A stretch of 64,000 nucleotides of DNA from Marsupella aquatica (lineage: Eukaryota > Plantae > Marchantiophyta): contig OZ316896.1 of the NCBI GenBank assembly GCA_973895155.1, positions 19,332,754 to 19,396,753 on the forward strand, given 5' to 3'. This document shows, piece after piece, positions 24,321-60,495 of this stretch (its first letter is position 1; every line of letters begins with the position of its first letter). Under the pieces are notes generated by a model. That model was not told the origin of the DNA. It ran no database searches and saw only the letters and a program-made list of their open reading frames with translations. The position numbers were made by a program, and so were the translations under genes.

Positions 24321-24612
24321 CTAGGAGTTCTCATATATTTACACCCAAACAGTACATCATGGGCAATGAAATGTAGAGTCATCTTATTGATTATTAGAAA
24401 ATACTTAAATTTTGTTGTCATAGATCATTAGAGTTTATTAAATCCAATTTTGAGTCTTATCAGAAAACATAGAGTCTTCTAAGATAATGCTTGGAATATT
24501 ATTAATAGAGATACAAAGTTTAATATTTTCTCTTAAAGTGTTTGAGCCTTCAAAACTTTGCAGGTGACCTTGGGGGGGGAGTGGTGACGGCTCCATATAG
24601 TGATACCCCAAC
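24321..24612. mobile_element. MITE family A, copy 2 (decayed; TSD CCCATAAT/CCCATAAC)
   Basis: Internal homology to 41206-41502 (TAAATCCAATTTTGAG, TTGGAATATT), right end TATAGTGATACCCCAAC, 7/8 TSD match at 24313-24320 and 24613-24620. Confidence 0.72.
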
Positions 24613-35039: not shown

Positions 35040-35150
35040 TATTTTTTTCAGGCCAAATTTCTATTAAAGGATTCCCAAAAGCTAATTTTTTCCAGCCCAA
35101 ATATACACTTTTGAACGCCCAAATTTATTTTTTTTCACTCAAATGTTTAA
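35040..35150 (+). repeat. Left subterminal CCAAAT repeats of the CACTA-ended element
   Basis: GGCCAAATTT, CCCAAAA, GCCCAAAT, GCCCAAATTT, CTCAAAT at ~21-22-bp spacing. A matching array lies at 58505-58690. Confidence 0.6.
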
Positions 35151-35446
35151 TAATAACTTAAATCATACATTTTAATTAATTTAAAAATTAGAGTAAATTT
35201 AATTTAGTCCAAAAATCAGAGGCCAATACCACTCAGACCATCTATAAATTAAAAAATATAGATGGTCATAAATCAAGGGTCAAAATGAGATTGACCCACT
35301 ATATAATTATTAAATTGTCCAGTCTAGTGAGAGAGCCTCACACTAAGCATATCCTAATTATTTACTTTATCCTACATGTTCAAAACATATCCTTTGACAT
35401 AATATGAATGTACAATTCAGGGTAGGCACTAGAGCAACCCTATCTC

Positions 35447-35656
35447 TTAATGATCAAGACAAAACTCATTTGAACAAGAAAGTCTGCTTCCTGATTTATC
35501 ATAGCGGATGTCACGGTTGCAAGTATCTCTCGCATGGTGGTTCTTAAACTTATTGGTGAGATCCCTAGTTCTGAGAACTTTCCAAATAAAATGCCTTCTA
35601 TTTTGTGTATGAGGACCAGAATAGTTGTCTCCAAGTATTACGTTTGCAGTTTCTTC
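35447..35656 (-). pseudogene. Displaced 3' end (69 codons plus stop) of the cargo gene's phosphatase exon
   Basis: The open frame EETANVILGDNYSGPHTQNRRHFIWKVLRTRD...CSNEFCLDH* joins in frame to ...ETWTTDEI (46797) once the insert and one GATCTCAT copy are removed. Confidence 0.8.
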
Positions 35657-36762
35657 GATCTCATCCCTGGGCCCTCACTCCTTGTATATTATACAATCAT
35701 ACCTGTGAGCCTCCCCTACACACGTACCCCTTCTTATTAATTTTTCTCCTATAGAGATTATCCTTGTTTTTTTTATAAAAAACCAAACATTTACTCTTAT
35801 TAAAATATCTTCAGTGTATTACAAAAGTGAGTTTTGAGCAATAATAATTATTCTTCATATATTACAATTTGTATTGAGCGATAATGCTTAACGCTGCCGG
35901 GTATGCTGCAATCTTTATATATGTAATCGAGTATGTAACTGGAGAGTTTTTTTGAAGACCAAGTTACCACTGGTCATGTATGTATATAACCGCTCTATAA
36001 AGGAGATGAAAATGGTAAGTCTTTATAAATCTAAAGACTGATATTGAATCAGCTATTGAATCAGCTAACCCCGCAGCTAACCTAAGACAATACAAACCTA
36101 AGACTCCTGCCCACTATCATGCCTTCCAATGCTGGTCTGCTTCATAAGTGAATAGTCACTTATGTGTACAGGCCATTCTGCTTGCCAAAAAATATGATTG
36201 TAAAAATGGGAAGGGACAATTGCAGGCAAATCATATGATTTTCGAACAGAGATCACACTCCATAGCCCCTCCACACTTGCCTCTACTTCAGGAATCACAA
36301 CATCTATGATTCCTAAACCACAACCTCCAGAACTCTCCTTAGCTATCTCCTTGTTGCTCCACTCTTCTTTGCTGTAATCAGGGCTGCCTTTCCCCTGTGC
36401 CTTCCTTGACTTTGGAACTCTGGAATAAACCACAACAGCTGCTGCAGTTGTCAGACCTCCAGTACCGGGTCTGCTTCTCCTCCTGCTCAGTCTAGAGCGT
36501 TTCTTCATCACTGTTGTCCCCACCTTAGTCATCTCGAAGTCTCCAATACACCTGATCCACAAATGGACCAACACCATGAATGAGTATTATATTGAATACA
36601 ACCAGATCTACAAGGTTTACAGATAACATATCAGAATACGCTTAGGATGTTTTCAAATCTTAACTTGCTACCTTCGCTCCTCTGGAGAATGTGTTACCCC
36701 GGTGTGTAACTGATGAATGATAAACATTAGGCATGGAGTGTACCTGCCCCAAATACAGGTCA

Positions 36763-39700: not shown

Positions 39701-41825
39701 GATAACATATCCCACAATGCACCTCTCCCACCAAATGCACCCTTCCTGTGCGCAAGGACTATGGACTGACAAAACTTAAGGATAGATTCCTTATTGGGGC
39801 CTTGATAGTCAAGATAAACTTCCTTTATACTAGGGATCCGAGACTTCAGCATCAACAGTTTGTGACTTAGATATTTCTGCAACTTCCTCTCTCTCAAAAT
39901 TTGGTTTCTGTATACTTTAGCTTGGTTTTGGACCTCAGGAATTGTGAGGCAACCTAGCCGCCTGCCCTTGCCAGTCCCTCTCTCTCCTCTTTTCTCATAG
40001 GCCTTGACCTCTCTTGCTACCCGAAGTCTGAAGTCCTTCATGTTCTTAATGGAATAACACTTGGAACACGTCAAATCATCAAACCCGCCCCCCAACTGTG
40101 ACATTCGACTACATTCTTTATGCCTGAAAAGGCCCTTGATCTCACAAGCTTCTTCACTATACATACAGAACACCTCTGCCATTACTAGGGGCTCTGCATA
40201 CCACGCACCACCCACTTTCACCTGGTCGTGTAGGTGACTTTTGATAGGCCTAAGTTCTGACCCTACTTCTATCTCATCCCGCCACAGACCCCAACACAAC
40301 AATGACAAATTATCGAAAGTACCTCTATCATCATCTCGTGCTGACATCCTTGACGAGCTGCTTGATGCACCTGCAGTCGAGGTGCGAGTCAAGAACCCCT
40401 GAATTTTTCTCTGTTTCTTATCCCTCCCGTCCACAGTACGGGGTCTGCCAGGGCGCCCTGACAAAACTGGCTCATTTCTTGTAGGCCTCTGACTTTTGGC
40501 CACATAATCAAGATGGATCAAGCCAGTACAATGGCTTGTCAGATTAGCCTCCAAGTTTCGTTGTTTGGGTACCAAAGTCAAATGGTGAAGACAAAAATTG
40601 CAGAACAGTTTCAAAGTCTGGAACTCCACTGGTTCCTTATGGACATCCCCCTCGACTATAAACGTCTCGCGACCAACTGTCTGCAACTTGTTGACCTTTG
40701 CTACAATCTTCAAATGCTCGTCAAGTATGGCTCTATCAGTCAAAGTATTTGACTGCGCCCTCCTTGCAATCTCCACATGCCCAACTTTCTCACTCCTGTT
40801 CCTAGCCACCCGAGCTGCATGCTTTGATGATCGCAAATGCGAATTTTTGAAGTTGGTAAATGCATTATTGATGGATGATTTATCCATCAATGTACCTTTT
40901 GCTAGCCCTTCCACCCGCTTGTCACACTCACAACACTCGATATGCCCCCAGGGCATGTTGTCTTTGTCCCAAGTTCTCACTTTCCACTTGTGGTCAGCAC
41001 ATTTAATGGATTCCATGTGAGTCTTCAACTTATCCGCAGATGCTTCCCATACTGCCTTTAAAGTATTGCTCATAAGAGTGGACATGAATGTGACTTGTTG
41101 TTCAGGCTCTGGCAAGGGGCAACCAGAGTGTGGATCAGCTTCCACTGGAGGCTCCTCATTCATGGGAAAATCGGCATCATCACTCTCTGGCAATGAAAGG
41201 CCATTCTCGGGGGTTTCACTTCCACAAAAATGGGATATCACGTGCGACGAAGTATAGGGTCATTTTATTGGTTCAAAAAGAAGACTTAAGAATTTTCTGA
41301 GAAGAACAATAGGGTCTTTTAAATCCAATTTTGAGACTTATAAGAACATTAGGGTCCTTATAACCAAAATTTTGGAATATTCCAAGAATATTCCAACTTT
41401 ATAGGGGTTGAAAAAATAAATTTTTTTCTTACATTTTAGGGGGTCCAAGGCCTAAAAACGTCGCAGGTGATGGGGAGGCATCCGTATAGTGAGACCCCCG
41501 AGAGGCCATTGGAAGCATTGCTACTCCCGAGGGCTTGCCCTGCGCCTCCAGGGTCTACGTGCACCAATGGGGTTGGAGGCTCCAAGGCATTTTTGGGAAT
41601 GATAACAAGCTTTCCCCCACAATCCTCCAAAAGATTGCAGATCTCCCATTTCTCCGGCATCCGAGTGGCGAGATTGACATCAATAAAGTGGAAGTCAAAA
41701 TCGAGTAGTGCCTCCAACTTCAGTCGGGCATCAGCATACGATTCCCCTGCTTTGTAACTATATGACGATATAGGTTTCCTTTCCCCACCTTCTTTGTCTA
41801 CTTGAAACAAAGTGGCAGGCGGCAT
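36763..41825 (-). pseudogene. P-element/THAP9-like DDE transposase with N-terminal Zn fingers and AT-hook; disrupted
   Basis: Motifs LAEDET...VRW.PKHD..IGFCG (joined by GT-AG intron 39385-39226), HASDGDARRR, DQDYIHNGKKLVNPL, DRQNWASA, GSDACEQFFS. Two CxxC...HxxxxxH fingers and GRPGRPR. Lesions: MITE at 41206-41502, frameshifts at ~37775 and ~37080, in-frame stop at ~36893. Confidence 0.75.
41206..41502. mobile_element. MITE family A, copy 5 (297 bp; 8-bp TSD AGGCCATT), inside the P-like transposase
   Basis: Ends CTCGGGGGTTTCACT / AGTGAGACCCCCGAG. TSD at 41198-41205 and 41503-41510. Removal fuses ...SSNASNGL to SLPESDDADF... in frame. Confidence 0.92.
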
Positions 41826-41859
41826 TCTCTCACCCTTTACTGACAACCTATCCACCTCT

Positions 41860-44800
41860 CATGGGCCTGCGCACAGTCCACATGACAAAGGGAGCATCAA
41901 CATAGGGATTGCTCAAAATAGGATAGGTTCATTTCATTCTAACCACATATTCACCCAAAATGCAACTTTCTTGGGTGGCATGGCGCAACACCACACAATG
42001 TGGACATCATGTGCACCAATTCTTCTACTAGAGACAGGTTACAAAGATGTTAGGCAGATTGATGATTGTTGGCCAATGCGGGAAACAAGCAACCTGGCCT
42101 ATTAGAATGGGCCAACATCCAAAGGAAGTCTATGGAGGGCCTGCGTGCGACAGGTATTAATCTGATAGTTTAAACAAACCGCCCCAATTCTCATTTCAAC
42201 TCGATCAGTGGCAAGTGGATCCCTGAGCTCATTGATAACATCTTGGATGTCATCAAGAAGGAAGTGGTACTCATTCAAGCCACACGGAAAAATGAATATG
42301 GCTTTCGCCCGAGCAACAATGAGACTGTAGAATGTGATCCAGCCTTTTGACCTCTGCCGAAAGGCCTCCAAAGCCATGCCAATTGCATTCTGTTGACTAC
42401 ATATAAGACAGGCTGGATCTTTACCGTTGCTTGTTGAAGGCAATGGAATTGTGTGAGAGAGATAGAAAGGAGGACAGAAATTCATGATATCAAAGCAAAG
42501 TAGGCTACCAAGATTGGTTATAAGGCAATATTAAGCAACCCACACGTGGAGACCGCATCCACTGGACCAATCCCACGAGAGCCTTGCCCCATCCCGACCA
42601 TTTCTCGTTAGGATTGGCTGGTTACAGATCCATTGCTGCTTTCTCCGACATGTGTCGGGTGGGAAGGGCGTACCCTTTGCATGCAAGGACTCCAGATTCA
42701 GCGTAAGCACAAGAGGGACAGGGATCTGCACATGGCCATTTCAGCTTGCCCAAGTTTAGCTTGTCCCAATTCAGCTTGTCCCATATGTGCTTGGTCCATG
42801 TACAGTCGGGGCCAGGCCCACACTCCAATCCTTCTCCTCCACAGTTGTGAGGGCCACAACAGACTATACATGACTTAAGGGGCTGACAGCAATGACAAGT
42901 GACAACCATGGACACAATAATGACAGGCTCTAATCACACACTCCCCCAGGCAACCTGCTTCGAAATTACAAGGAGCGCTGGACTGCCAGCGGCTAAATCC
43001 AGCAGTCGCCAATGGGGGCATGACTTCCCCATGGTCTCCTTGAACTCGATGGGCCCTGCAAATTAAACGAGTCCTACATGTACAAAAAAATGACAAAACT
43101 GAAATGACATCTTACCTGAGCAAGATACAAAGCCCTGTGCATTAGCAACTTAAAACATATGAACTATATAAGAAGCGGTAAATAATGGAGCACAATTGAA
43201 AGAACCACAAAGTCCAGAATATGTACATACCTTGGACTAGAGTTTTTGGACCTCTGATAGAATGGTCCGCCAAGTAATGCAGCTTGAGGGGGCCGGGCCG
43301 GTAGCAGCTGCGTTGGGCACAAGTTGGTATGTTGCATGATAATGTTCAAACGTTAGCTCAGACATTTCAAAAAACCAATGATGCAGGGGTCATAACACAC
43401 AACAACATTTTGTTTTGAACACGATGGCAAAAAGGAAATGACTACCTTCCTAGTTGGGGGATAGCAGTTGCCTTGTACCACACCTCCGTCAATACCCCTC
43501 CTTCAATACCAAACTCTCGTCCACTGGACATCACCGCTACCACAAGATCCATTTCCAAAAAGAGCGTTAGTTGACAGTCTTTGAAAGGCCACCAGCATAT
43601 GTATGTGTTCGTGCCATGCCTTTGGGTCATATGGCAGAATAGTCATCATCGAATCCCTTAAAAGAAACTCAGACTGCCAGGGCCGAGGCTGACATACAAA
43701 TACATAATATACTGATGATATATAGGTGATACAAAAATTAGTGTTGGCATCCGCTCATACACTCTTACAAAATGACCATTCAAGAGGTCATGTGAACTGC
43801 TAACTTGGCTATCATCCCTGCACAAACTAATCTCCTGCGTAGACTAACAATCTGTGCAATTTAACCTCCCTATGCATGTACCTACTCGCCATCTTGAAGC
43901 TCTACAAGGCCTAACACAAAAGGGTCCGTGTTCTAGAGCTGACACACTTTCCAGGCCCTCTTTTTTGCAAAAACCTCATTGTACTTAACGTCCGCGTCTG
44001 GATCTACATCACATGCTGGACACCGAGCATCCAAAGCATGTACACATCCTGCACCAACAGTGATCTGAACACCATTCATCGTCTGAGTGAACATAATGGA
44101 CTGTGGATCGACATACTTTTCCCACATGGTTTGGCGGGTCATACGGGATGGACGATTAGAACCAAACATAATGCCAATAGGCCAAGTCCCTCTCAACATG
44201 CCTAATGCCTTTAGCTTACGTCGCAACCTCACTGCTTTCTCATAGAGAAGGCCTACAGATTGGCTTTGGGTGGTTACCATGGTGTCTTTTGCACCGTTAC
44301 CTCCGTAGAAGGCAAAGACAGAGGGTCTGAAAATCAAGCCTACCAAAGCTGGTCCACACGACAAATCCTCCTGCAACAACATTGTCCGGTGTGTCACTCA
44401 CTGTACTATAAAAATGGACAAACTGAGCATCACAAATTGCAAACAGAGCGAATGTTTCAGGGATTTGGCTAACTTACTTGGCCTCTAGAAATCGACAAAA
44501 CTTCCCGCTCCCACAACTTCGTGTGGAGCTTTGGATTTGTTACATCAAAGCTCCTTGAGATCCACCTCTCCCCAACCTTGATGATTCACCTAAAGTTTGC
44601 TGCAGAATTTTGGGCAATGGTAGCCATCCCAGATTAAAATTTGTTTATCAAACTCAACTGCACAAACTGCAAATGAATACCTTGCGGCCTTAACCCTTGA
44701 CGCAATACAAGTGACCAAGGAAGTTCATTCCTGATTGGTGCGTACCTCAGTCTCCTTTGTCCACTGATCCTCTGGTCGTGACCCGGGTCCTCAAAGCTGA

Positions 44801-45450
44801 ATCTTCCAACCTCCACTCTGCTCAACTAAGCCCGATGGATGATCACTGCAGCTGCTTACAAATGTCTGCGACCAAACCAGGAAAAGCGTTACTTACAGAC
44901 CAACACCCTAGCCAGTGAAGGAGCTACAAATGGAGTCCAAAAAGTGGTGGAAGATTAAGTATGAGAGCAGACCTAAGGCAATAGCAGAAGGCAAGTCAGA
45001 GCAGAATAAAATAAGACATAGGAAGCCGGGGAGGAATCAGAAGAGCGATGGCAAGCGCTTCAACCTAAGTGCAGAAATTAAGAGCTTAAGAAGTCCTAGA
45101 GACGGTTGCTAAAGGAACTCAAGAGCAATTGCAACATCCGAGGCAATGCCATTTGGCGATATATAGTGAATGCAATATCGTCAACCAAGAAATGCAGTTC
45201 ACTTGAGGGACTGTCACTACATTCAGGACTACATCGCGTGGGTTTTGTTCAGTCTAATGCAGGGAGAGGGTTACCTTGTTGCACCAAACCGGAAGGTGAT
45301 CGCTCCTTAGCCTTCCAGGGGGTATCCTTCGATGATATCTGAAAAGGCCCACAGGCATCAGCTAAAAGCACGTAAACTCTACATCCATCCTTCCATTGAA
45401 AAACTCTCTCAACATTGAAAACCAGATGGCTTACCGTGCTCAATTGATGT
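41860..45450 (-). pseudogene. Decayed multi-exon accessory gene(s) of the P-like element, function unknown
   Basis: Coding-like Cys/Trp-rich fragments (42102-42485, 42875-43096, 43933-44397, 45249-45443). Minus-strand GTAAG donors near 43115, 44477, 44895 and 45434. Internally similar peptides HFLLDDI/HFLVDDI and LGECVIR/LGEYVVR. Confidence 0.35.
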
Positions 45451-46796
45451 GTCCACTCCCAGAAGAGTCAACACGCAACACTGAAGCTTTCACTATCTCC
45501 TTCGATCACTGGGTTTCTCAAAAATGATCTGTAAGCAAAACATCTCCACAATGAAGCACTCAAGCTGGCAGCGTTTGCAAATCCAATGAAATGTCACTCA
45601 TGTCGATCGCATCAAGATCTTAAGGATAGTCACAATGACTTAGAACAATCCATTGAAATCCAGCCAAATGCATTGGCAGTCAAAGGCACGTAAATCCTAC
45701 AAATCACAATGCAGTGGCGTGCAAATCCGCAAGTTGGCACAGTTACAGCCAAATCCAGGAAACATTGAGGCAACACATAGAACATTGAAGACATAACCGG
45801 GGAGATAACAATGCATGCCAAAAATGTGGAAGGTTCACAGAGCATTTGAGTGGGTGAGATTGAGACGACCTTGACAATCGCAATGTCGGGGAAGACCTTC
45901 CAAACTAAGGACCTTCAAAGCCAGCACTCAGCGATGCTGGGCAAGAGCAAGAACAGGCAAACGAGGGCCAACAATGTAGGATGCGGATCGACAATGGTGG
46001 ACAAGGCCAAAGCAGCAATGGCGGACGAGGAGCAGCAATGGCAGACAAGGAGCAGCGATGGCAGAGGATCAATGATGGTGGACGAGCAGCGATGGCAGTC
46101 GAGCAACGATGGCGGCCGAGCAGCGATGGTGGACGAGCCAGGAGCAAGCAGAAGGCATCAGGGAGCGGGAGCACGAGTGGGAGCGCGAGGCGAGGTGAGA
46201 CCGAGCGCAAAGGAAGAATGAGGAGCAGGGGTACGAGGGGGGGCTGACCCCGGGCGGTGACGGTCTCACGACTAAACCCTAAACCTTAGGGTTCATAACG
46301 TAGGCGAGGCCATGGATCGCCGATTCAATGGCTTCGATTCGCTCTCCCTCTAATCCAACGGTTTGAGTCATCCCCGATGTGTTTTCTTAAATTCCCCGCC
46401 AAAACCCCCACCACTCCACACACCTGGTCCATCCCCATTGCCCCGGGATCGCCCCCAATCCTCCCTTCAAAACTTTTCTAGCTTAGCATAGCCAGTATTA
46501 ACATTTTAATTTATGAAGGAGATATGGATACTGTAAGGATAATACACGTGTACCAATTATAATTTGACACGTGTACCAATAATATGATGCCGCGTGTCGC
46601 TACCTATTGATTTACCCTTCCACAAGTAAGCAGGATGACATTTCAAGGGGTCTTACGAAATTACAAAGTGGTTTCAGTATATATGCGGTGGTTGCGGAAT
46701 TGTAAGCAAATTATAAAAATTACCGCCGAAGGGATAAAAATGACCCTTGAACGGTTCTCACGTCCTCCCCGTATTAGAAAGGAGGGGGGCCCAGGG

Positions 46797-49700
46797 GATC
46801 TCATCCGTGGTCCACGTCTCCAGTGGTGGGTAATGCTGCACCTCGTTCTTTCCGTCCCAAGGAATCTCTTCAGGAGTCACATCCAAGATGGTTCCAAACT
46901 CCTTATGGATACAACGACAATCTCCCCACTTCTGTTCCAAAAGAGCATAGATGGCAGCATGATCCTCCTTGCTTGTTAATAAATTGAAAACAGACCACTT
47001 TGGATTGTTGACAGTGATATAATGTTGAACGCAGTAAGCCTTTCTCAATTTGCAAAGATACGGCCATAATATCTCGGGCAAAAATGTGTCATTTGAAGCT
47101 GTGTGAGTAAATGGATTTGGAAACAATCCATTCACGTCATAATTCAAAAATGCCTTCAATGGAGAATCATCAATAAGAACTATATTAGAAGCATCATATT
47201 TTTCTGGAAAACGGTCCCAAATGGTTTGCAAATTCTTCAGAAGTAAATTGGCCTTCCCATCTGTTATATCTGGCCTTTGGATGCAACTATCAAAGGTATC
47301 TTCTTGAGTAAAGACAAACTTGAACTTCTGTCGCTCCTCCTCAGTGAAAATCAACTCCATTAAGTCCATTGTTTTTGGCCTCCTTGCACAGGTCCAAATT
47401 GCGACGTCAAAAACCATGAAAGCTGCATATAGAAATTTGTGGAGGTATGGGCGCTCCACATACATGAAATTAAACCCTCCACGTCTCCCCCAGTGCACAC
47501 CACGTAAACTTGTCTGATTTTGCCATGGTCCTGAGCTTCTGGTCTTAATGCAATCCCAACAAATCTTGTTAAGGTCAAGAACCAAGAGCTTTCGCCCGAT
47601 CGGAGAGTGTAGTATTGGAGTGAATTCTGGAAACATTAAAATAAGCCCTTAGTCAATGCGACTCAAAGTTTAAACAATTACTACGGAGGAAAACTCTCAA
47701 AATTTGAAATCAAACAAACTTTGTTATAGCATTTGAAGTAGAGAAGAACGACCCTGGGGCGACCCTCCTAGAAAAACATTAATTACATTCACTTGCCATT
47801 TTTTAGATCCAAAGTATACCTGGGTCAAACCCTTCCTCCACAGCAACGCTTTCCGAGGGAATGCCAACAAAATCCTTTGAGGAAGGAGATTCTACGACGG
47901 AACTTTGATCTGTAAAAAAGTATATTATTACAAAGATAAAGCTTAGATTGTCATTAAAATACCAAGAACCAAAGAAAGGGCTAATACTTTCCAATGCTAA
48001 AATGCCCAAATTCATCTATTGTTTGATCACCTAGAACACTCTGTATCTCGGAATTGATACCACTGGGAAGTTGCTCTTCAAAGGATGGGGGTGCAAAAAC
48101 TGGGCTCAGTCTCAAGTTCAGTTTTTTGTAATCTGATTTTGCCATTATCTTTGGAGCATCGTCTAGTGATTATATCATTCCAACCTTTGGTCCATTTCTC
48201 CATATAAAATGAGTTGCAGGACGGACTGTTTTCATATATCTAGTCCTGCCGATCTTGGATCCAAAATTTTGTGAAAATGATAATACTACGGGGCTTCCTG
48301 TAGAAGCACTTGTAAAAACCAATTTAGTCTCTGATGAGCAATATAGAGGAGACAGGGGAGGATTTGAAGCACCCGCCTTCTCTTCTTCATTTGCAGCGGT
48401 CTCAGGTACTTGACGATCATCCTCCTTTGCAAGCGCAATGTCTGACATTTCTCCCAATTCTACTGCGTCAATATTGCCTAGACCATCTGTGGTTGCCTTC
48501 CAATGTGCGTCCGATGTGGACGATGTAAGATCTGGGTCCGATTGGTGCATCCAATTCTCTACACCGGCAAAGGGATTTCTTGGTGGGTCGCCCTCAGGTC
48601 GACCCACAACATCGGCCAACCCCACACCAAAGTAGGGAATACCTACCACTTGTGTTCCACGTTCATCCAAATTTCGGGTGACCCTGTCGTCTGTGTCGTG
48701 ACCCAATTCTCCTTCCTCAATATCATCTTCACCCTGGTCTACGCCTTCTTTGGCACCAACATGCTCGAAAACCCCATCTCGGGCTCTACCAAATTTGGAA
48801 CCGCCCATCCGGTCACTCATTATGGAAGGAACTTTCTCGCAGAGAACCCTTCCATATGCCTGAGTGAAATCATATTCATCCTCAGTGTCTGAATACGCAA
48901 AGCATTCTCTGAAACACAACAATGACACCTTCATAACCTGTCCTCCCGAGAAAAAGTCAAGTATAGTCTCCCCTTCAGCCGAAAAAAATTCGATAATACT
49001 CTGCAGCATACATTTTGGCTTAGCGTGAATATTCACAAAGCCACCTCTACTTCCCCACCATCTCAAACATGGGAGCCTTTCGTAAGAAATCTCCAATGTG
49101 GAATGCCAAAGTTGACTCAGTCTCTGTCTCCTTACTTGTCTTACTCTTATTCTTATCTCGCTTCTCCGTCTTGTCTTCCACTTGGAAATCAGGGTCGATC
49201 GCCGAATTGTAAGAAAATTGGCAATTAAATCCAGGCCTGAACACTTGCTTCCAATCAAATTTCTCCTCAGTGGTGATTCCTGCAAAGATCCACAATGTAT
49301 TGCAGTAATGCAATAATTTCAGCATCGGTCCAAACATGTTGTCGGAGCCTACTGAAGTCAACAATGGCAAGAGGACACAAAGGCGAAGGCTCTTGTAGCA
49401 TTTCCGGCACGGTCGTCTTCATCAAATTCTCACTAAAAAATGTCAAGAAAGGCTCCGTGCAAGAACGACCAATCCCACCAAATTCTTTACAATACAACCC
49501 ATCTAGTCTGACCATCAGACTTTGTGGGAAACTCTCCTTGACCACATTCTTCTTCAATGAATTGTTGAGGTAAACCTCACCCGCTGCTCTCCTCAATTTT
49601 GTCATCTCAAGCTCAGATTTCAAGGAAGGCAACAATATCACCAGAGACTCCCAAGATGTGCCAACAGGAAACTTCTCACGATACTTTTCCATGAAATAGC

Positions 49701-52700
49701 CAATAATGACTGTTCTCAATTTGGACATTATCTTGATTGTAAGGGCCAAGTCTCCCATTGCGACAAGCTCTGATTTGTTGGTGATATCCTTCTTCAGCAA
49801 GACACGCTCCTCTTCAACGTCCTTCAAGATCTCAATTATTTGTTTGCTACTAATCTCTCCTTCAAAGCATCGAAAGGTACCGGGAGTGATCAATTTTGGG
49901 GGTCTTGGCCCTCCATACCCACCAGCCCCGTCTTGGAGCTTCCCACTCAACCATTTTGCACACACGTTTCGCCATAATTCAAAGAGCTCATCTTCGGCAA
50001 AAAGTAACCAATAAATGCTCTTTAGGCTTGACTTCCCCATTGTAACCTTTGCCAGGGCAAACCAATCCTGCATATCCAATGGACTTGACATTAGTTTCAG
50101 GGTACAATGCATATGTTAGAAAATTTATACCTATATTTGAAACAGGCTAAGCCGCCTCGCCCCAAGGGCATGGCGAACCTCTACATCTAACCGCAATTGA
50201 CTGAAACGGAACTAGGGAATTATTCTTAGAGAGACTAGTCTAGGTTGCCTCGCCTTGAGGGCGAGGCAAACATTTGCTTTAATCTTCTAACCAAGGAAAA
50301 CAAGAAAAGGCAACCTCGCCCTTGGGGTGAGGCAAACCTCTACCATTGACAATCTTTAAACAAAGCGGATCAAGAATAGTTTGCGTTGCTCCAACATGTA
50401 CCTGATAGTTTTTCCTGTCTGTATTTTGATTGGTCCCAATCCCTGGACGCGGCGGTTTCCCGCACTCCTCAAACTGCCTTCGTGCATGAACAATAGTCTC
50501 TAAAAAACAAGACTTAAATTGCATAGTATCATTGACAGCATTCGATAAACTTGAATGCTCAACCAAAATTGTCTTCGGAGTGAGGTCAGATAGGATCCTT
50601 GCTTCCTATACTTTAGTTTGTTGGCAAGATCTGTCAGCTTGGCGTCAGTCTCGGCCCACCCTTGGATCCATTGGGCAGCTCTTGCAGAATGCTGGCCACT
50701 GATGGCAAGGAATTGGATCTCATGCTTCTTCACACCAATCAAAAACTCTTTCCTATCCTGAGGTGTGTTGTCATAATGAAGCAACTGTTTAGTGCTCTCG
50801 CGATACGGAATCAAATCAGCAACTTGTGGTTCCTGTCCAGGGTTTTTCATCATAGACTTTGATATCTCCATTGCATGCGAAAGATTGAACATTCGATATA
50901 CAAAAACGGCCGATGGCGGATTAATACTTTTTACAGGAATATCAAAAACTTCGCGGATGCCAAAAGTATAATACTACTCAATATTACGCAAAACCTCTTG
51001 GCCTTTGAGCACATCATCTTCTGTGGGTCCTTCTGTCGGACACATATCATCCTCTGGATGCAAGACAAAGTTTGAAGTCGACCCTGACATTGGTTTTGAT
51101 TTCGCAACCTTTGCCTTCTTTGTCTACTTTTTTTGGGGGCCCTCATCATCTTCATTTTTTTTAGCCATCTTCTTACGGCGTGAACTCCCAGATTGTTTCT
51201 CTTGTTGAACAACCGGCTCTTGAAGCTTTCATTTCTTCTCTGTCTTTGATTGCACACTTCTTTCCACTGTCTTCTTTCTCTCCTTTGCCTTATGCTTTGC
51301 TTCTTTTTTCTTCATCTCTGAAATCCACGTCCGGCACGCGGCCTCTTGAAACTCTGGACAAAAAATGAAACTCTTGTCGATTGCTTGCTCGTATGAAAAA
51401 TGTGCCTTCTCAATCATCCTTTGAACTATCCAAGTAGACGGAGGGTCCACACTGTCCGCATTGTCATGCATGTGCTTCTTTACGTAGAGAAATCCAAACA
51501 CTAGGTCAACTCCACTTATTTGAGAACACGTCTTCTCAAACATCTGATCAATTGTTACTCCATCTAGGAAGAATCCCATATCAGCTACGCTTATCTCCAA
51601 TCGAGCCATCCACTCAACATTCAGTAAAGTCGAGTAGAGTTTTATTGGCACCAGAAGTCTCATCCACTGAGATTTCTCATTGGACTCAACAATAATCGTT
51701 GCATTGCGGTTGTTGTCCGTGTTCACAAGGACGACTGGACCTAGAGTAACAATTGTCTTATGGTCATTCAATTGACTCGTGAGGTCCTTAAAACAAATCA
51801 AGAGACTGCCTTCCGCCGACTCCCCAACTTCTAGTGCCCATCTAAATCCTGGAGTATCTTGGTCAGGGAAAACAAAGTCCTTGATATCCTCGTCCATAAT
51901 ATTTAACTCCGGCTTCTCAAGATTTTTTCCTGGTAAGAAACATTGAAAACAAAATGGTCAACATCATATTTTTAACATTGACATGTGGAAAACTTTCAAG
52001 GTGCCTCGCCCTTGGGGCGAGGCGACAAATAGAAGATTGCAAAATCTTCTTTGCTCCTAGTGCAATTAGCCCTGCCACCTCATCCAAGCAATCAAACATT
52101 ATTTAGGAATGCAGACGACATCGCCTCACCCCAAGGGTGAGGCAACTTCTAGGAAAGCAAACAACATTTAGGAATGCAGACAACATCGCCTCGCCCCAAG
52201 GGTGAGGCAACTTCTGGGAAAGCAGACAACATTTAGGAATGCAGAGGACATCGCCTCGCCCCAAGGGCGAGGCAACTTCTGGGAAAGCAGACAACATTTA
52301 GGAATGTAGAGGACATCGCCTCGCCCCAAGGGCGAGGCAACTTCTGGGAATGCAGACAACATTTAGGAATGCAGATAACATTGCCTCGCCCTAAGGGCGA
52401 GGCAACTTCTGGGAATGCAGAGTACATTTTAGGAATGCAGATGACATCGCCTCGCCCCAAGAGCGAGGCAAAAAATAGAATATAGCTAAAGATCCTTTAT
52501 TAATGTAAGATACAAGGTCCAATACACCTTCGGAGCAACAAGAAATCTAGAATGAAGTAGACGTCGCCTCAACCTTGGGGCGAGGCGACTGCAAAGGAAT
52601 ATAGAAATTTTCCTAATAAGAAGTTTGAAATCCAAATTAAAGTAAAGTTTCCTCGCCCTTAGGGCGAGGCAAGAAGTTGAAGCAGGTGGTGCCTTACGTG

Positions 52701-52866
52701 GAAAAGTGAACTGGGCTTTCTTTGACGCCTCCAACGCATTGTTAACCAATTTTTGGACATCCGGGTCTTCAGGGTCATATTCATACAGAGAGTTATAATT
52801 GAAGTTCAATGACTCTTGAGAACTGGCGGAGGTGGTGGAAGCTTCAGAACTGGAGGAAGTAGACAT
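46797..52866 (-). pseudogene. Cargo gene: ParB/Srx-like + beta-class amino-DNA-methyltransferase-like + FCP1/NIF HAD phosphatase-like fusion (~1620 aa reconstructed)
   Basis: Phase-compatible GT-AG exons 52866-52698, 51929-50402, 50067-48031, 47909-47820, 47626-46797 (+35656-35447). ParB-like VFDIPVKSINPP...YRMFN...EISKSM...FLAISGQHSARA. MTase-like VNIHAKP..LQSIIEFFSAEGETILDFFSGG. Phosphatase-like KLLVLDLN, ERPYLHKFL, VAIWT, LKNL..IW, VLIDDSPLK. Several premature stops and frameshifts. Confidence 0.72.
52101..52470. repeat. 65-bp tandem array (~5.7 units) with palindromic core GCCTCGCCC-CAA-GGGCGAGGC
   Basis: ATTTAGGAAT at 52101, 52166, 52231, 52296, 52361 and ~52427. Solo copies of the core at ~50153, 50246, 50313, 52002, 52565, 52651, 53001 and 53025. 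Confidence 0.95.
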
Positions 52867-53966
52867 TGTAAGGGGCGAGTGAGATTTAAGATGACATGTG
52901 GCAGCAATGGAGATTGCCACAAGCTGCAAGAGGGCACTAACAGGCAAACAATGATCGAGGGAGCGACCCAAAAGGGAAGGGAGCAAGGCGGAAATAAAAG
53001 CCTTAGAGCGAGGCGGAAAAAAATCCCAAGAGCGAGGCAAGAGGCAGGCAAGGAAATGAGGCCTCAAGCGCAAGGCCTGCCTTCCTATACCCCCTGCGAG
53101 CAAGGAGTCCGAGGAGGCAAGGATCCGAGAGGGTACGGAGGCATCAATGCGCGCCAATGATGGAGACCCTCCTCGCTGCATGTGATCGTGAGTCACCGAT
53201 GGTGTGACCACTCACGACCACTCGCGACTCACCTACCAATTTTAAACTTCCGAGCTGTCAGCGGTGTGTGCTCGCAACTCACCTATCACTCGTGAGTGAT
53301 TGGCTGACACCCTATCCGATGTCTACTTGTGTGCTGGGTGCGTGCCTCATCCACCCGTGCCCGATCTTTGGTGTCCACTCGTGTGCTGGGTAATGTGTGG
53401 GCTTTTTGCCTCTCAAACTGAGTATAGACTTCCCACAATCCATTTTTTTGGTTCATTGTCATTTAGACAGTGATTGGTACGATCACTGACTCTCCTCTGT
53501 CCGAGTGCCTTGTTTAGGTCCGTATGGTTGAATGCAAGGTTTAGTAAGGGCACTGGTGAGCACTGTGGTGCTAAGAGTTACAATGCTGGCATCCAAGGTA
53601 CCCATTTAGCTTGTACAAGGGTGGGCAGAGATATATTGCGGAGCAGGTTAGTGATTTTATTTATTTATCTTAGAAGTACTAGCTCAACTACATCTAATTC
53701 AATACCTTTAAGCCAAACCTAGATTAAGATTTACACATTAGGTTCTAGATCATATATTTTACTCATTTCTAGACCTTTATCCACAGTCTAGCATGTGTAG
53801 AACTTACTATACCCCTTTATGTGATTACTAACATAGTTTCTAGAAGTGGGTCGGAATTATTTCATGCCGACCTGACTATGTCATCTTAACTAGCATTTTA
53901 AACTGGTATATAAAAGCATAAGCAAGATAGTTTCACAAATAGTTTTGACATAATTTCAACTTAATA

Positions 53967-54295
53967 GTTGGAGTAGGGTCGAAATAATTCCGACCCAACT
54001 TGTCAATGTTTAGTCAATTAAATCATTTTAAGACATATTGTTGGAGGAGGGTCGAAATAATTCCGATCCGACTTGTAAATGTTTAGTCAATTCAATCATT
54101 TTAAGACATATTGTTGGAGGAGGGTCGAAATAATTCCAACCCAACTTGTAAATGTTTAGTCAATTCAATCATTTCAAGACATATTGTTGGAGGAGGGTCG
54201 AAATAATTCCGACCCGACTTGTAAATGTTTAGTCAATTCAATCATTTCAAGACATAATGTTGGAGGAGGGTCGAAATAATTCCGACCCAACTTGA
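53967..54295. repeat. 73-bp tandem array (~4.5 units) with palindromic core GGGTCG-AAATAATTC-CGACCC
   Basis: GTCGAAATAA at 53978, 54051, 54124, 54197 and 54270. An inverted partial copy lies at ~53848. Confidence 0.95.
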
Positions 54296-54420
54296 ATGTA
54301 TTTAGGGTTTAGAGTGATTTTACAATATTTTTTGGAGGAGAGTCCAGATTTTGAAACATGATTGTAACATGGGGAACTTAACAATTTCTAACTTTATTTG
54401 AATACAGATAGTCCGCTATC

Positions 54421-57400
54421 ATGATCAATTTTACACGAGGGGATGAAGTGTCATTGGTGATCGATGGATTTGAAACGGCAATTGGGATAGTTCAAAAGGT
54501 TGACCCCCAGGATACTATACAGAACATTTGTCTAGTGGATAATCGAATTGGGGTATTGATCGAAAAGTGTTTTAATGGATCGCGTCAACTTCCATTTCCT
54601 TCGCCCAAATTTTCTACATTGGCTGAGGCAATTGACTCCTGCGTGATTTGGGATTGTGCATTGGCATACTTGAGGTCATCAACTCAGCGCCGAAGAATCA
54701 ATGTCGATGATTTCTCTTTGGCTGGAGATGCTGGAAATGATAAATCCAAAATTGATGCAAGGGTTGAAGAGGACGTGTTCAAGGAAGGAGATGAAGTTCA
54801 GATGTTCATTTTTGATCAGTTGGTTGCAAATGGAGTTGTTTTCAAGACAAATCCGATGGATATTTGTCATACTGAAACACTCGGGGTTGGTCGCATCAGT
54901 ATAAGAATATCTGATATTGTTAAGGGAAATCAAAAATTGCCATACTCGCACCCTGGAGCTGATACAATAGAAGAGGCCTTGCATACCTGGGTTATCTGGG
55001 ATGTTGCGCATGTTTCTAGAAAGGGCACTCTACGAGATTTTGGCGTGTTTGGTAGTTCAAATATTTTCAATGATCTTCCATTAAAAGATTTTACACTACG
55101 TTCCAACTGGATGGCGGAGGAGGTTGATTTGTATGACGCTTCTCGTTATCGGAAGGTTGCAACAGGTGTTATCACGGTCCCATTTGAAACAGGTGCCGTT
55201 GACGATGAACTTCTTAATTGGTGTAGATCATGTTGGTGTTGCTGTTGTGAATATCAATGAACCCGGATTATTTCCAAATATCCGTGTTGGTACCCCTGGC
55301 TTGGTGAGGTGGGAAATCAAATCCCTTCTATTGATTTCGTCTCAAAGGTTTCTTGGGGATATCCTTGAGGAAGTTTCAGAGAAGTGGATGGAGTCGGGTC
55401 AAACTAAGGGCGATCCGGATTCAGATGGTGATGGTAAACCTACAAAAAGACCATACAATTTCATTAGGAGGACAAAAGTTGATCTTGAGGAGAAGAAGAA
55501 AAGGCATTTGGAGTTGAGGGCACTTTTGAAAATTAACGAGGAGTCCATTGATTCCATCCAAAGAGAAGGTTGTTGCAAGCTAAAGTGTTGCTTGAACATG
55601 CCCAGGGAGGACTTAGAGGCAATGAGGAGGGAATACCATGGAATGTCAAGTGACAACAAAACAAGTCACATCTTTAGTCTCTTTGGGTGTAGAGAGGAGC
55701 AAGTCAAGAGAAAGGGATTTTTTGTTCTAAAGGGACGTGTGGTTTGTAAAGATGCATTTATTAAAATGCATGGGTTCAGTACAACAAAGTACTATGACTA
55801 CAAAAATCAATACGAAGCTGGTTGCACAATTGGTTTCCATGGAAATCAGGGACAACGGAAGACACGATCAAGCACTTTGCACGCTCGCGCCTTGTTGGAG
55901 TCCATTTTAATCCAAAATGGGGAACCAATGCCACATCTTCCCTATGGTGGGTCCAACGGCACTGACACTATTGAATATCGGCTCTCATCTTGTTTTACTA
56001 AGAAGGAGATTTTCTAAGAGGTGTTTACCAAGATGGAATTAGATGGGTTTGCTAAGGTTACTGAAGTTACTATGTACAACATCTGGAAAAACTCATTTGA
56101 TAATTTTGACTTTCACAAGGGAAGTGCATTTGCCAAGTGCACATTTTGCACTGAGTTCAAAGATCAATTGATGCGGGAGAAGAGAAAAAAAGAGCGTGCA
56201 GAGATTGAAGAGAAAAGAGCGCGACATCTTCGTGAACAATGTCAAGAAGATATGTTTACTATGCTCATAGGGTTCTTGCAAAGAAGGATCCTCAAAACTA
56301 TCTTTGCATTATTCACGATAAGATGGATCAAGCCAAGACTTGGATCCCCAGGTTGGTCCCCACTCCAAAATCCCTCTCTGGTAGTGGTCAGCCTTTGCCT
56401 ATTGCTCTTACTGGGATGTTAACCCATGGAAGAGATCCTGGAGTGTATGCACATTTCAGTTTGACTGGACTTTGGCTTGGAGATGCAGACTTTACCGTGA
56501 CATCTTTGGCCAAATGCCTCCAAGATTTGGAAGATTACACAGGAGACAAAACTGGAGACCTTCTTGAGGGATTGAATTGGAATGCAACTAGGCCAATATT
56601 TCAGTCCCTTCTAGACTTTGAAGCATTTCTGGCCGGTTACTTGGAACCCAAAAATGTTTCAATTGTTCGATTTCAAGGCATTGAAGATGGTCAGGAGACT
56701 AAAAAGTCAAGCACAGTGGATGTTGGTTCTAAGGATGATCCTGAGACTACTAGGGGCTCTTTCAAGCCCTTACCAAGGCACCTAACGTTGCAGATGGACA
56801 ATTCAGGGAAAGATAACAAAAATCAATATGTGATGGCATTTTGCACTGAGCTTGTTAGCAGGGGGTGTTTGAAACTGTGCAAATGGCATTCCTCATGGTT
56901 GGCCACACCCATGAAGACGTGGATGCATTATTTTCTCAAGTATCCAAACAGGTCAGATACAAAGAGGTTGCTACCCTCTTGGGGTTGATGGCTGAGGTTT
57001 GGGAGTGTGAAAGCATTCATCCTGTACCACGATTGATTCAAGAGGTTGCATCTTACAAGGAGTATTTGAAAACTTTCCAGGTGAAAGAGATAGAAGGTCA
57101 CTCAAAACCAGTGGCATTTCTTTTCTCCATGAGGGATAATGTGCCAGTGTATCAATATAAAGCACATGTCAAGCAACCTTGGCTTCCGGCAATGGGGAGG
57201 TCCATTTGGAGAACTGATCCCATCACAAATGCGCTCATTTTACCGGAAGGCCAACCATTTGCAAAACCTATATCTGGGGATGTACAAAAGAAGGCTGGAG
57301 AAATCATCCCATTCCTTAATCGCTATATTGATTTCTTGAAGAAAAGTTGTAAGGATGAGACCGCTGCAGCATATAAAGAGAGATTTCCTCTGGTCAAATA

Positions 57401-58139
57401 TTGGAAGAATCTTGTGCAAGCACTGTCCGAGGAACTTACAATAGAAGGGGAGGGGGAAAGACATTTGCCATTGACAATTGATTTTTGGCCAAAGACTAAC
57501 CATGGCACAGGTTACAAGATGATTTTGGGGACATCTCAACCGTCAAGTGAACCTTCTCAAAATCCAGAGATGATGGACCTTCAAAATGAGTACATGGAAG
57601 AGATGGAAGATCAAGCTGCACCCTTTGTTGGTGCACGACAAGAGCGAGAACCTGCACGTTGGATTCCTCTACAAGATATTCAAGAAGGTCACTTTGTATT
57701 TTTACGTCCAGAGGATGAATGGGAACAGGAAAATGGCAAAGGGCGTTTCTGGTTGGTTCGAGCTTTGGGTGGTGTGGATCCAAACCATGAGGTTCCCTCA
57801 ACAGATTTGCAACATATTGAAGGGTCTTCTTCAACGTCTGTTGAGAGCATTCCTCTTAGGAATGCTCCTATGTTCCAAGTACAATGGTGGAGGCCTAAAC
57901 ATGGTAAGCATGATGCAAAGGATGATGTTCGATATGAACGTTGCTTTCAAACCACTAAGACTTGGGAGCTGGATCCTGGGTTTGACAATGTTACTCAAAG
58001 TTGGCAGTTTGCAAATTCTGCAATGTATGGGTTTAAGTCAGGTGCTAAAGAACAAAATATTATGGATAGAGGTTTGACAATTACTAAGAATGTTTTGAAA
58101 ACTCTCAAAATTTACATGGAAGGTATAATTGATGAGTAG
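54421..58139 (+). pseudogene. Transposase of the CACTA-ended element (DUF7869/Sola1-like DDD core with three N-terminal tandem domains), ~1240 aa, disrupted
   Basis: IIHDKMDQ, LTLQMDNSGKDNKN and FLMVGHTHEDVDALFS acidic-triad motifs; CCKLKC, VCK and KCTFC Cys clusters. Three N-terminal repeats of GDEV...VA.G.V...LG...I...LP.P...T..EA....VIWD. Frameshifts at ~55215, ~56238 and ~56865; stop at 56015-56017. Confidence 0.82.
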
Positions 58140-58504
58140 ATTGATAGAACTCGTAGGTTACAAGTCTCCACTCAAATGACTTGTGATTAAGAGGGTCGAG
58201 TTGATTTCCATGCGTTTGTCTAAAGTGAGAGAACAAGACAATCAAATTAATACTCTATGATCTCTCAAAGTTATTGAATGGACTTTCTTATAATTATTAT
58301 TTTATTTGTCTTAGTATATTTTAATTCTAGAAAATGATGCCATTTCATTCCTTCTAGTAGGTTGGATATCATCCTAGTTAACTTTGTCTAGACAGTATAG
58401 TCATTCCATTGTATTGGTGCTTAGTTAGATATCTTACTCAAGCTAAATGTTTTGAATATAGATGCTATCCAAGCTTATATGTTATTACTAGATTCTATCT
58501 ATTT

Positions 58505-58690
58505 TCCAACCAAATGAACACTTTTATCACCCAAATGTTTTTTAATATCATCCAATTTAATATTTTATTTTCCCAAAATTTCATTTTTTTATCCCCAAAT
58601 TTACATTTAATGATGCTTGAATTTTCATTTTTCATCTTCCAAATTTACAATTTTCATGCCTAAAACTATGTTTTTAAATCGCCAAATTTC
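58505..58690 (+). repeat. Right subterminal CCAAAT repeats of the CACTA-ended element
   Basis: ACCAAAT, CCCAAAT, TCCAATT, CCCAAAA, CCCCAAAT, TCCAAAT and GCCAAAT at ~21-22-bp spacing. Confidence 0.6.
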
Positions 58691-60495
58691 CCTATATCCT
58701 TTATAATTTCAGTTTTAATGAATATAGTGATTCACACCCAATAATATATATCACAGTATACCAACAACATACTTAAACCATCCAGGAGTTTCATAAATTA
58801 TAGACTTTCAAAACATTATCTATTTATTTATTTTATCACTAATTTTATTTATTATTTATTTCACTTCTGTGACTTCAAATGAGAATTAGATTTTAATTTT
58901 CTATTTTACCTAGAGCTTAGCTTTGGAACACATCAACAAGCCTATGTGTTATGAAACACTCCTACCATATGCCTAGATGATTTAGTGGTACAAAATATAT
59001 AACAAATAGAGAAAAGAAATGCTGCTATAAGGAAACAAAGGGTCATTTATTTGAATGCAACTCTCTTGGCTGCATGGAAGTAGACATGTGAGTGCTAAAT
59101 CTTGCATAAAAATCTGGAGCACTATCTATATTGGCCACCTTTCTACCATCATGATGGTTGCAATCAAAAGTTGTGGAGTTTGCATGCTCAAATTGATATT
59201 CATGTAAAATAAAGTCAAGGACAAAAGCAATATTTTATGGCTTATACTTGCCCAATGGTGGGGTTCAATATAGTAGGGTGCAAAATAATATACTTAAATT
59301 ATCAAGAAAAACTTTTCTAAAAAAACTTGATAGGCACCCATGGAGACCTATTTTGGTAACTATCAACTCTTCTTGTATAGTGCTTTGATGTTGTGTTGCT
59401 AGTTGTTGCTATGTCTTGCTAGATGTGGCTTTTTTCTGTGAGCATTCATTTGATGCATTAATGTTGATGAGTGCCAATCAACCAATAGTTCATCTACATT
59501 AGGCTTAAACATCATACTCTTGCTAGAATAACTTTTTATGGTGGAATAGACGTATCTCACAATGAAATGGTATATATCGCATACTATGTTGTATATTAAC
59601 TGCAAAAATGTAATGTTGGGTGTAATGTATATCCCTCAAATGTGAGGATGAGGGGGGGGGGGATGATGTAGTTATTTATGAATATATGATTCTATTGCCT
59701 CACAGTTGCGAAACTTTTAACTCACGAAGCCTTCCCTTTGGCTTTTTCTATCTGCTTTCACTGATTGTTCCTATCATTTTCACGCTTTTATTTCATAATT
59801 GTTTCAGCTAGGTTTTCCATCAAACATTTATATTTCTTATTGCATATGATCATGTTGTTTGAGTCTCACCTGAGTCTCTAATGTCTACTTTGATGGGTCA
59901 ATTTTCTATTGTAAAAAGAAAATACTGTGATCCCGACTGTGATTCCCCATCCGATCTTTAAGCCCTACTCAAAATTTCAATTTATATTTGAAAACTTCTC
60001 ATCTAGCAAAATGCCTACAAGGCTCGTTTGAGGAATGATTGGCTACAATGGGATTATGACTCCATAATTATTACAGAAGCTTTATATTGAGACAAAGCAT
60101 ATCATTCCAATTGTCAAAAAGAGTCATAAGCTTGTTGCCATTCTGATGCTAAGAAAGGCCTTTGATCTAGTTCACACAATTTATGCATAGTGAAAACGTC
60201 CGGTCTATTGCATTGGCAACTTCCTAGGGAACATGCATCTTTGACCACTAGGGTTAAACCACTTGTTTTGCCATACTATTTGTTACAGACCAAAATTTTA
60301 TGATGCTTTCCTCCTCAAGGTGACCACCTTCGATCTGGTCTTCTGGGTTTTCAATGCCCCCTTGGAAAGCTGCCTGGCTGTTTCATTCTATATATGCCAT
60401 CACACTTACAGATCAGGCTATAATCTTTCAAGACTAAAATTGTACGCACCTGGTCCAGGGGTTGTCATAAAAGTGCGACTCAGAGGTTGTTGCTT

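Follow-up and report, generated by a model that had tools for sequence, protein, structure and literature searches.

A liverwort CACTA-type transposon with 21-bp palindromes as candidate docking sites for its own ParB-fold protein

For only a few transposon proteins, such as VANC and TnpA, is there proof that they recognise the element encoding them and relieve its repression. Transposons of red, brown and green algae are known to carry ParB-domain accessory genes, whose targets have so far only been proposed. Here we describe a 64-kb stretch of the genome of the liverwort Marsupella aquatica (contig OZ316896.1, positions 19,332,754 to 19,396,753; the whole stretch of 64,000 nucleotides is called the window below). 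It contains a CACTA-type DNA transposon, the host element, with a cargo gene predicted to encode a ParB-fold protein and with arrays and solo copies of a 21-bp palindrome in and around that gene.

Among the closest described systems is that of Plavaka (EnSpm) elements of the red alga Bostrychia, where inverted-repeat arrays adjoin ParB-domain PAG3 genes and a binding hypothesis has been put forward (10.1101/2025.02.11.637652). The two systems are alike in having a large EnSpm/CACTA-type element, a ParB-domain accessory gene, adjacent tandem arrays of inverted repeats and a shared binding hypothesis. However, in Bostrychia it is a 2-oxoglutarate (2OG) oxygenase to which PAG3 is fused, the methylase being encoded separately by PAG2, whereas here the ParB domain and a methyltransferase fold without motif IV appear to form one protein. 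In addition, the host here is a land plant, with sites both in introns and elsewhere along the element. Sola1-1_Ec32 of Ectocarpus encodes a ParB-like and an N4/N6-methyltransferase domain in one protein, opposite to the transposase (PMC12477816, citing Iyer 2011), and this protein is said to resemble green and red algal transposon proteins (PMC12477816). It belongs to another transposon superfamily, contains a predicted methylase and comes, in the available text, with no site sequence, whereas in the liverwort protein the active-site motifs of both domains are absent (see below) and a PH-like domain stands first.

In Arabidopsis VANDAL elements, VANC motifs lie in non-coding parts, regulator introns included, are gained and lost in tandem, and occur in two variants; they are 8–9 bp long, non-palindromic and in one orientation, and their binding and hypomethylation have been shown (PMC5735166). 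Clustered non-coding motifs with gain and loss are thus a shared trait, but the liverwort sites are 21-bp palindromes with loops in both orientations, the protein folds are different, and binding is predicted. ParB-parS, KorB, Noc and VirB, the last a ParB/Srx-fold antisilencer (PMC10770331), share the fold and the multiple palindromes with the present system; here the GxxR arginine is missing and the site is 21 bp long. Algae are reported to have methylases that come from phage ParB-terminase loci, and DIRS1 elements to carry methylase domains that are inactive (PMC4738411). Finally, Marchantia MpDN4MT1, an active gene of the host, has retained TSPPY (10.1101/2021.02.12.428880), in contrast to the motif-less transposon cargo seen here. 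MpDN4MT1, the bdelloid rotifer 4mC (N4-methylcytosine) methyltransferase N4CMT (PDB 8s9n) and, by prediction, the cargo protein all represent the beta-class fold in eukaryotes. Our literature search, which left most subscription papers outside, found no report of a land-plant ParB-accessory system or of either site variant described below.

From its sequence, we read the locus as a land-plant variant of the ParB-accessory arrangement, and not as canonical ParB, an active N4/N6 methyltransferase or VANC. Our preferred explanation, to which we give slightly more credence than doubt, is that the palindromes and a second variant of them are docking sites for a dimer of the element's own ParB-fold protein on double-stranded DNA. 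By analogy, the feature may work like ParB/parS or like a VANC-type protein-plus-site module. With an explicit 21-bp site in two variants, a multi-copy liverwort protein family and precise predictions (N9 spacing, TCG cores, no methyl transfer), the ParB-accessory hypothesis can be put to the test in a plant lineage that includes a genetic model. If the explanation is true, a bacterial/phage DNA-clamp fold would have been reused as a sequence-specific regulator of a eukaryotic transposon; if it is not, the palindromes would be an ordinary repeat within a dead copy.

Distribution and geometry of the palindromic sites

We found 12 full copies of the palindrome GCCTCGCCC-N3-GGGCGAGGC (type 1, 21 bp) in the 64-kb window when up to 3 mismatches were allowed, all of them between 50154 and 52670. 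Chance would give 0.01 copies, and 12 were attained in none of 100 shuffles. A first-pass annotation, made from the sequence alone, had counted the palindrome about 14 times, which agrees with the 12 full copies plus two right-half copies 5' of the ATG; the 65-bp array that it had placed at 52101–52470 was recovered as a tandem repeat at 52101–52471 with six sites (Table 1). Nine full copies fall in intron 1 (51930–52697) and three in intron 2 (50068–50401), with none in exons, while non-coding DNA makes up 26% of the cargo-gene span. The probability of such exon avoidance by chance is 2e–5 if the sites are taken as 8 independent clusters and 0.018 if they are taken as 3 independent regions. 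At the same threshold, the 51 kb of flanking and nested DNA contain no type-1 site. Of type-1 matches at N9 spacing, 12 of 13 are inside the 12.6-kb host part of the window. A near-match with a spacer one nucleotide shorter was seen outside the host element (23636–23655). The loops of type-1 copies are present in both orientations, every full copy can form a strong hairpin (about –19 to –22 kcal/mol as RNA), and five of the six solo copies have no target duplication of at least 4 bases, the sixth having an offset AAGTT.

A second tandem array, with a 73-bp unit, contains five copies of GGGTCGGAAT-N-ATTCCGACCC, here called type 2 (GGGTCG-N9-CGACCC). Types 1 and 2 are equal in length and have an identical TCG-N9-CGA geometry, so that both can be written as one 21-bp joint family, G[GC][GC]TCG-N9-CGA[GC][GC]C. 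With both repeat families removed, four dispersed type-2 sites (up to 2 mismatches) were found in 10,970 bp of host DNA, against a shuffle mean of 0.093, and four were attained in none of 2000 shuffles. Alternative spacers (0–20, not 9) yield 0–1 type-2 sites each, and among 224 half-sites with the make-up of GGGTCG a single one, GGGTCG itself, attains four. One type-2 site is present in the 51,388 bp outside the host element, and 9 of 10 type-2 matches at N9 lie within the 12.6-kb host part of the window. Neither type occurs inside the nested element at 35665–46796 (up to 2 half-site mismatches) or near the right end of the host element (up to 2 mismatches). The site pattern was chosen after both arrays were seen, and the four dispersed sites were not part of its definition.

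Spacers of three dispersed sites are close to the type-1 spacer (rank P-values 0.0012, 0.0026 and 0.023; 0.26 for the fourth), whereas the spacer of the type-2 array itself is not (0.65). In these three type-1-like spacers only 0–2 of 3 inner pairs can form. Two of the four dispersed sites are in coding DNA, one of them within the cargo gene itself. Given the N9 spacing, the type-1-like spacers and the poor pairing, the two types look like one site family that is kept by sequence and spacing and not by pairing. Fixed spacing combined with poorly paired spacers favours recognition of duplex DNA over hairpins, and this pattern is the strongest evidence for a two-fold-symmetric reader of duplex DNA. 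The first-pass annotation had also stated that no copy lies in an exon. This is correct for the exact type-1 variant but not for type 2, which is found in cargo exon 3 (48585) and in the transposase open reading frame (ORF; 55396). Its proposal of a protein-plus-site module gains from a dispersed variant whose fixed spacing is far above chance, and the module remains a predicted one.

Table 1. Features of the host element and its site system (positions in the window)
Feature	Position	Strand	Remarks
Host DNA transposon, CACTA...TAGTG ends, 2-bp AT target duplication	34986..58729		terminal inverted repeat 91% over 32 nt
Dispersed type-2 site near left end	35277..35297		both CpGs read as deamination products
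Dispersed type-2 site near left end	35420..35440		2 mismatches
Nested 11.1-kb element, short inverted ends CCCTGGGCCC, 8-bp target duplication GATCTCAT	35665..46796		
NIF/HAD phosphatase-like second cargo gene	46797..47648	-	PF03031, E 3e–16
Cargo exon 3: helical region, predicted beta-class N4/N6-methyltransferase fold without motif IV, acidic tail	48170..50067	-	3' end approximate
Type-2 site, perfect half-sites, type-1-like spacer	48585..48605		in cargo exon 3; spacer rank P-value 0.0012
Intron 2 (predicted)	50068..50401	-	GT..AG ends; homologues stop at donor, P0027 spans junction
Three solo type-1 sites (50154, 50247, 50313)	50154..50333		intron 2
Cargo exon 2: PH-like domain, basic linker, predicted ParB/Srx-fold domain (SGQHS)	50402..51929	-	
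Intron 1 (predicted)	51930..52697	-	GT..AG ends; acceptor at matching position in diverged relative
Solo type-1 site	52003..52023		intron 1
65-bp tandem array, six type-1 sites (52123, 52188, 52253, 52318, 52383, 52449)	52101..52471		5.7 units, 93% matches
Two solo type-1 sites (52566, 52650)	52566..52670		intron 1
Cargo exon 1	52698..52866	-	predicted ATG at 52866; reading frames and GT donor
24-bp unit with two right-half type-1 sites (~52999–53038)	52981..53038		5' of ATG
Degenerate type-2 copy	53848		
73-bp tandem array, five type-2 sites GGGTCG-N9-CGACCC	53967..54294		upstream of transposase ORFs
Broken host transposase gene (DUF7869)	54412..58139	+	PF25273, E 4e–15 and 8e–22
Type-2 site, type-1-like spacer	55396..55416		in transposase ORF; spacer rank P-value 0.0026

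Over 47600–54400 the window was compared with sister contigs from 3 coded organisms and 3 studies, drawn from 4 of the 8 runs listed; the best-matching run may be the window's own sample. Statements about sister contigs, here and below, hold among the listed differences (40 of 438 letters, 12 of 22 indels, 15 of 18 joints), where the absence of a row carries no meaning. Divergence from the sister in run X1 is ~1% (15 letters over 50603–51960). Sisters have the consensus letter at four type-1 mismatches of the window (50255, 50313, 50328 and 52571), as have runs X1 and X5 at the type-2 mismatch at 54067. Most of the 65-bp array (52032 to 52451) is missing from some sister contigs, and others are without the last of the three intron-2 sites (50311 to 50396) or without a 73-bp unit. 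In one run the 24-bp unit 5' of the ATG is present once more than in the window. Single sister contigs span solo sites, exon 1 and upstream DNA, and a more diverged subfamily aligns in exons only. The sites are thus a property of the element family, in a number that differs from copy to copy: sisters keep them, gain and lose units, and bridge exon 1 in single contigs.

It had been remarked earlier that many CpGs in the site cores survive. As a count this is right: 18 of 24 type-1 core CpGs are intact, and all 6 changes are CG to TG or CA. As a sign of protection it fails. Changes affect 6 of 24 core CpG dinucleotides versus 6 of 168 other arm bases (Fisher P-value 0.028, with array copies not independent), and core CpGs are lost at about 3.5 times the per-base rate seen in the rest of the arms. 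The CpG observed/expected ratio, a comparison suggested in the first-pass annotation, is not higher in introns (0.62 and 0.63) than in exons 2 and 3 (0.70 and 0.61); it is 0.61 in flanking DNA (3.5–30 kb). We therefore rejected CpG protection of the site cores. Core CpGs are likely methylated like the surrounding DNA and survive because the copy is young, as only ~1% divergence from sister contigs suggests.

The cargo gene and its protein family

The gene model in Table 1 relies on predicted splicing of both introns. For intron 2, homologues end at the donor (…YQV, …WKV, …FQV) and homologue P0027 spans the junction, while for intron 1 the backing is the loose end of a diverged relative, with an acceptor at the same place. 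The window copy of the gene is dead: exon 2 is broken by in-frame stops at 51231, 51126 and 50976 as well as by a frameshift near 50602, while exon 3 is damaged too, with ~190 bp absent near 49285–49289 relative to sister contigs and a frameshift near 49053. Sister contigs are free of the stops at 51231 and 50976 and of the frameshifts, and carry the ~190 extra bases near 49285.

Exon 2 has 78 homologues at E ≤ 0.001. All named homologues of the cargo protein are from liverworts, the nearest being those of Riccia sorocarpa and of Calypogeia fissa, the latter at 47% over exon 3. No longer homologue of exon 2 was found among 2581 candidates. One exon-2 homologue, P0079, has a weak DUF7869 match (E 1.4e–4), a hint that elsewhere cargo and transposase are close or merged in gene calls.

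The model of homologue P0003 (44% identical; mean predicted local distance difference test score, pLDDT, 81) has an N-terminal PH-like domain (Z about 5.6, a common arrangement) followed by a fold for which the top 10 Foldseek matches are all ParB, Noc or PadC (best E 2.5e–3). Comparison by VIA gave Z 8.8 to PadC (root-mean-square deviation, rmsd, 3.4; 100 aligned) and Z 8.6 to KorB (rmsd 2.8; 94 aligned). The models point to a ParB/Srx fold in the cargo family. Helices are seen after the ParB domain in models; profile and structure searches listed no helix-turn-helix match there, and a helix-turn-helix at this place is plausible. The arginine of the GxxR motif is present in none of 57 motif matches, 51 of which have serine. 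The presumed position reads GQHS or similar, and we infer from the models that GQHS sits at the GxxR position. This arginine is required for nucleotide binding by ParB (10.1101/2025.10.10.680097). Because it is replaced in 57 of 57 motifs, a cytidine triphosphate (CTP)-gated sliding clamp formed by the cargo protein is doubtful. No ParA family was found among 20 ORF pieces scanned, the genes there being broken.

The C-terminal part can be judged from the Riccia homologue P0087, whose model has a mean pLDDT of 51 (residues about 500–760 mostly 40–75) and matches beta-class N4/N6 methyltransferases (Foldseek E 5e–6; VIA Z 13.3 to M.PvuII, rmsd 3.6, 196 aligned). The exon-3 piece of the window matches PF01555 at E 0.003, under the cut-off, and NCBIfam and PHROGs gave further weak methyltransferase matches. 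We take the models to suggest a beta-class methyltransferase fold (permuted Rossmann) in the cargo family. The S-adenosylmethionine-binding motif I of such enzymes is of FxGxG type, and D(F/I)FSGG of the cargo family aligns with DFFAGSG of M.RsrI with a one-residue gap. At the position of motif IV, DFSR, DLT(A/V/T/S) or DLI is read in all 13 rows that cover the column (20 aligned rows), and [DNS]PP[YFW] was found in none of the 97 proteins examined. Hence, binding by the cargo protein is likely and methylation is not. In the first-pass annotation the palindromes had been called cognate binding or modification sites; binding is upheld by the ParB/Srx fold, the confinement of the sites and their retention in sisters, while modification is not supported, motif IV being absent in 13 of 13 aligned sequences.

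Candidate readers of the sites

If the element's own ParB-fold protein docks on the palindromes, a dimer of it would load on each 21-bp site, and site clusters would concentrate the protein on its own element family. The density of sites near both promoters would let it regulate that family, most likely against silencing, and the arrays would grow by slippage or unequal exchange and be kept since site density matters. We are about half as sure of the anti-silencing step as of docking itself; it is modelled on VANC, on TnpA (10.64898/2026.08.24.746577) and on the ParB-like antisilencer VirB (PMC10770331). A broader scenario, which we offer as tentative and hold to be rather unlikely in its entirety, is phage-derived, ParB/parS-like self-recognition in liverwort CACTA elements. 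A motif-less ParB-methyltransferase fusion would serve as a pure site reader that shields its own family from silencing, and the outer bases of the 21-bp palindrome would drift (GGGTCG to GCCTCG) and be re-amplified in introns, independently of VANC and TnpA.

Several observations weigh against docking by the cargo protein. On the protein side, the Foldseek E-value to ParB is never below 0.001 and the VIA Z-score is barely over the tool's noise band of 7–8, the absent GxxR arginine speaks against a CTP-gated clamp, and a helix-turn-helix following the ParB domain could not be demonstrated. On the DNA side, the sites of the window copy are unprotected from CpG decay, every full type-1 copy has strong hairpin potential, and the type-1 21-mer recurs in two other GC-rich contigs and in a mitochondrial-type contig that is rich in hairpins and unrelated to the element. 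The site pattern was set post hoc, though the dispersed sites did not define it. Finally, type-2 sites adjoin the transposase gene and one element end, so that the transposase could be the reader.

The last point underlies the alternative that survives best, though we still find it unlikely: the transposase, or a TnpA-like product of that gene, reads the sites, and the ParB-fold cargo is a bystander. The type-2 array directly precedes the transposase ORFs, and the left end has two dispersed sites at a distance of 290–450 bp. TnpA, encoded by Spm, is known to bind motifs in clusters, and transposases can act as regulators, but the TnpA sites described there are terminal and non-palindromic (10.64898/2026.08.24.746577). 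Moreover, the cargo gene and the DNA just in front of it hold 14 copies, at 5–8 kb from the right end. Near that end there is none (up to 2 mismatches), and the host element carries, apart from these sites, a 22-bp subterminal repeat at either end.

A neutral origin is somewhat less probable again. The palindrome would then be a GC-rich hairpin spread in introns by slippage or template switching, processes that could also account for arm repair and loop flips. Strong hairpins, the gain and loss of array units and the identical 21-mer in unrelated hairpin-rich DNA are in line with this, as are loop flips with shared flanks (52253/52566, P-value 0.01; 52449/52003, P-value 0.002), a weak signal given that 7 of 112 comparisons are below 0.02. 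However, slippage of a hairpin does not account for the four dispersed type-2 sites, which keep N9 exactly although their flanks are unrelated and their spacers pair poorly, and two of which lie within ORFs, nor for a second array of the same geometry but another inner sequence, nor for upstream copies that consist of one half only.

It appears improbable that the palindromes work at the RNA level, as pre-mRNA stems with a role in splicing or self-regulation, or that a host transcription factor binds them. Each of the 12 full type-1 copies lies in an intron and is stable when folded as RNA, but no Rfam family is present in the window, no type-1 site (up to 3 mismatches) occurs in the 51 kb of flanking and nested DNA, and type-2 sites pair poorly and lie near the element end and in two genes of opposite direction. 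We regard it as very improbable that the sites are targets of an active cargo N4/N6-methyltransferase: the beta-class fold and the motif-I-like D(F/I)FSGG are retained, and Marchantia has active 4mC enzymes with a CG preference (10.1101/2021.02.12.428880), but DFSR, DLT(A/V/T/S) or DLI replaces motif IV in 13 of 13 rows and 97 proteins lack [DNS]PP[YFW]. Least credible of all is an independent genome-wide micro-MITE (miniature inverted-repeat transposable element), for which both orientations and the near-match at 23636 could be cited, but five of six solo copies have no target duplication, the window has no copies outside the element, and single sister contigs bridge sites and exon 1.

Wider scans, the host element and its surroundings

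In metagenome contigs the motif occurred at 5 loci, of which 3 are independent; none had tblastn or extended blastn similarity to the element. These loci were rejected as relatives of the element; they comprise a mitochondrial-type contig pair and two GC-rich single sites. Contig L001 (1–7578; likewise L004) is of mitochondrial type, with a group I intron, a tRNA and dense GC-rich hairpins, one of which equals the type-1 21-mer. Protein scans gave 52 pattern matches in metagenome contigs and 7 in viral contigs, none confirmed in either set, and two Atlas searches yielded no usable match. A hAT subterminal relic was also considered as a source of the motif; a literature search with a 9-letter piece found nothing relevant.

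Without its nested insert the host element is 12,612 bp long and has three genes, the NIF-like gene, the cargo gene and the DUF7869 transposase, the last transcribed opposite. In the Pfam scan the transposase matched DUF7869 only. An AT duplication is present on both sides of the element, two letters being weak by themselves; EnSpm/CACTA elements make target duplications of 2–3 bp. The 22-bp subterminal repeats at both host ends (35078–35132 and 58554–58695) are in the same orientation and not inverted. The NIF-like gene is split by the nested element, with its 3' part resuming left of 35665 and a frame that is open for 353 codons over the insertion point.

The nested 11.1-kb element is outside the site system. 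It has ORFs of 543 and 663 amino acids with no Pfam/NCBIfam match and a transposase-like look, and more unassigned ORFs at 42–46 kb; its long ORFs may be P-element-like. One nested-element ORF contains a 297-bp MITE (41206–41502) with 14-bp inverted ends and an 8-bp duplication AGGCCATT, relatives of which are found at 31846–32138 (84%), 24356–24500 and 33785–33844. An intronless protein kinase ORF lies immediately right of the host element (60496–61473). Elsewhere in the window, a 39-bp tandem array outside the element (15699–16070), whose unit contains the short palindrome GATTGATCAATC, may belong to another transposon, and a complex 27-bp satellite (1365–2893) has higher-order periods and strong strand asymmetry.

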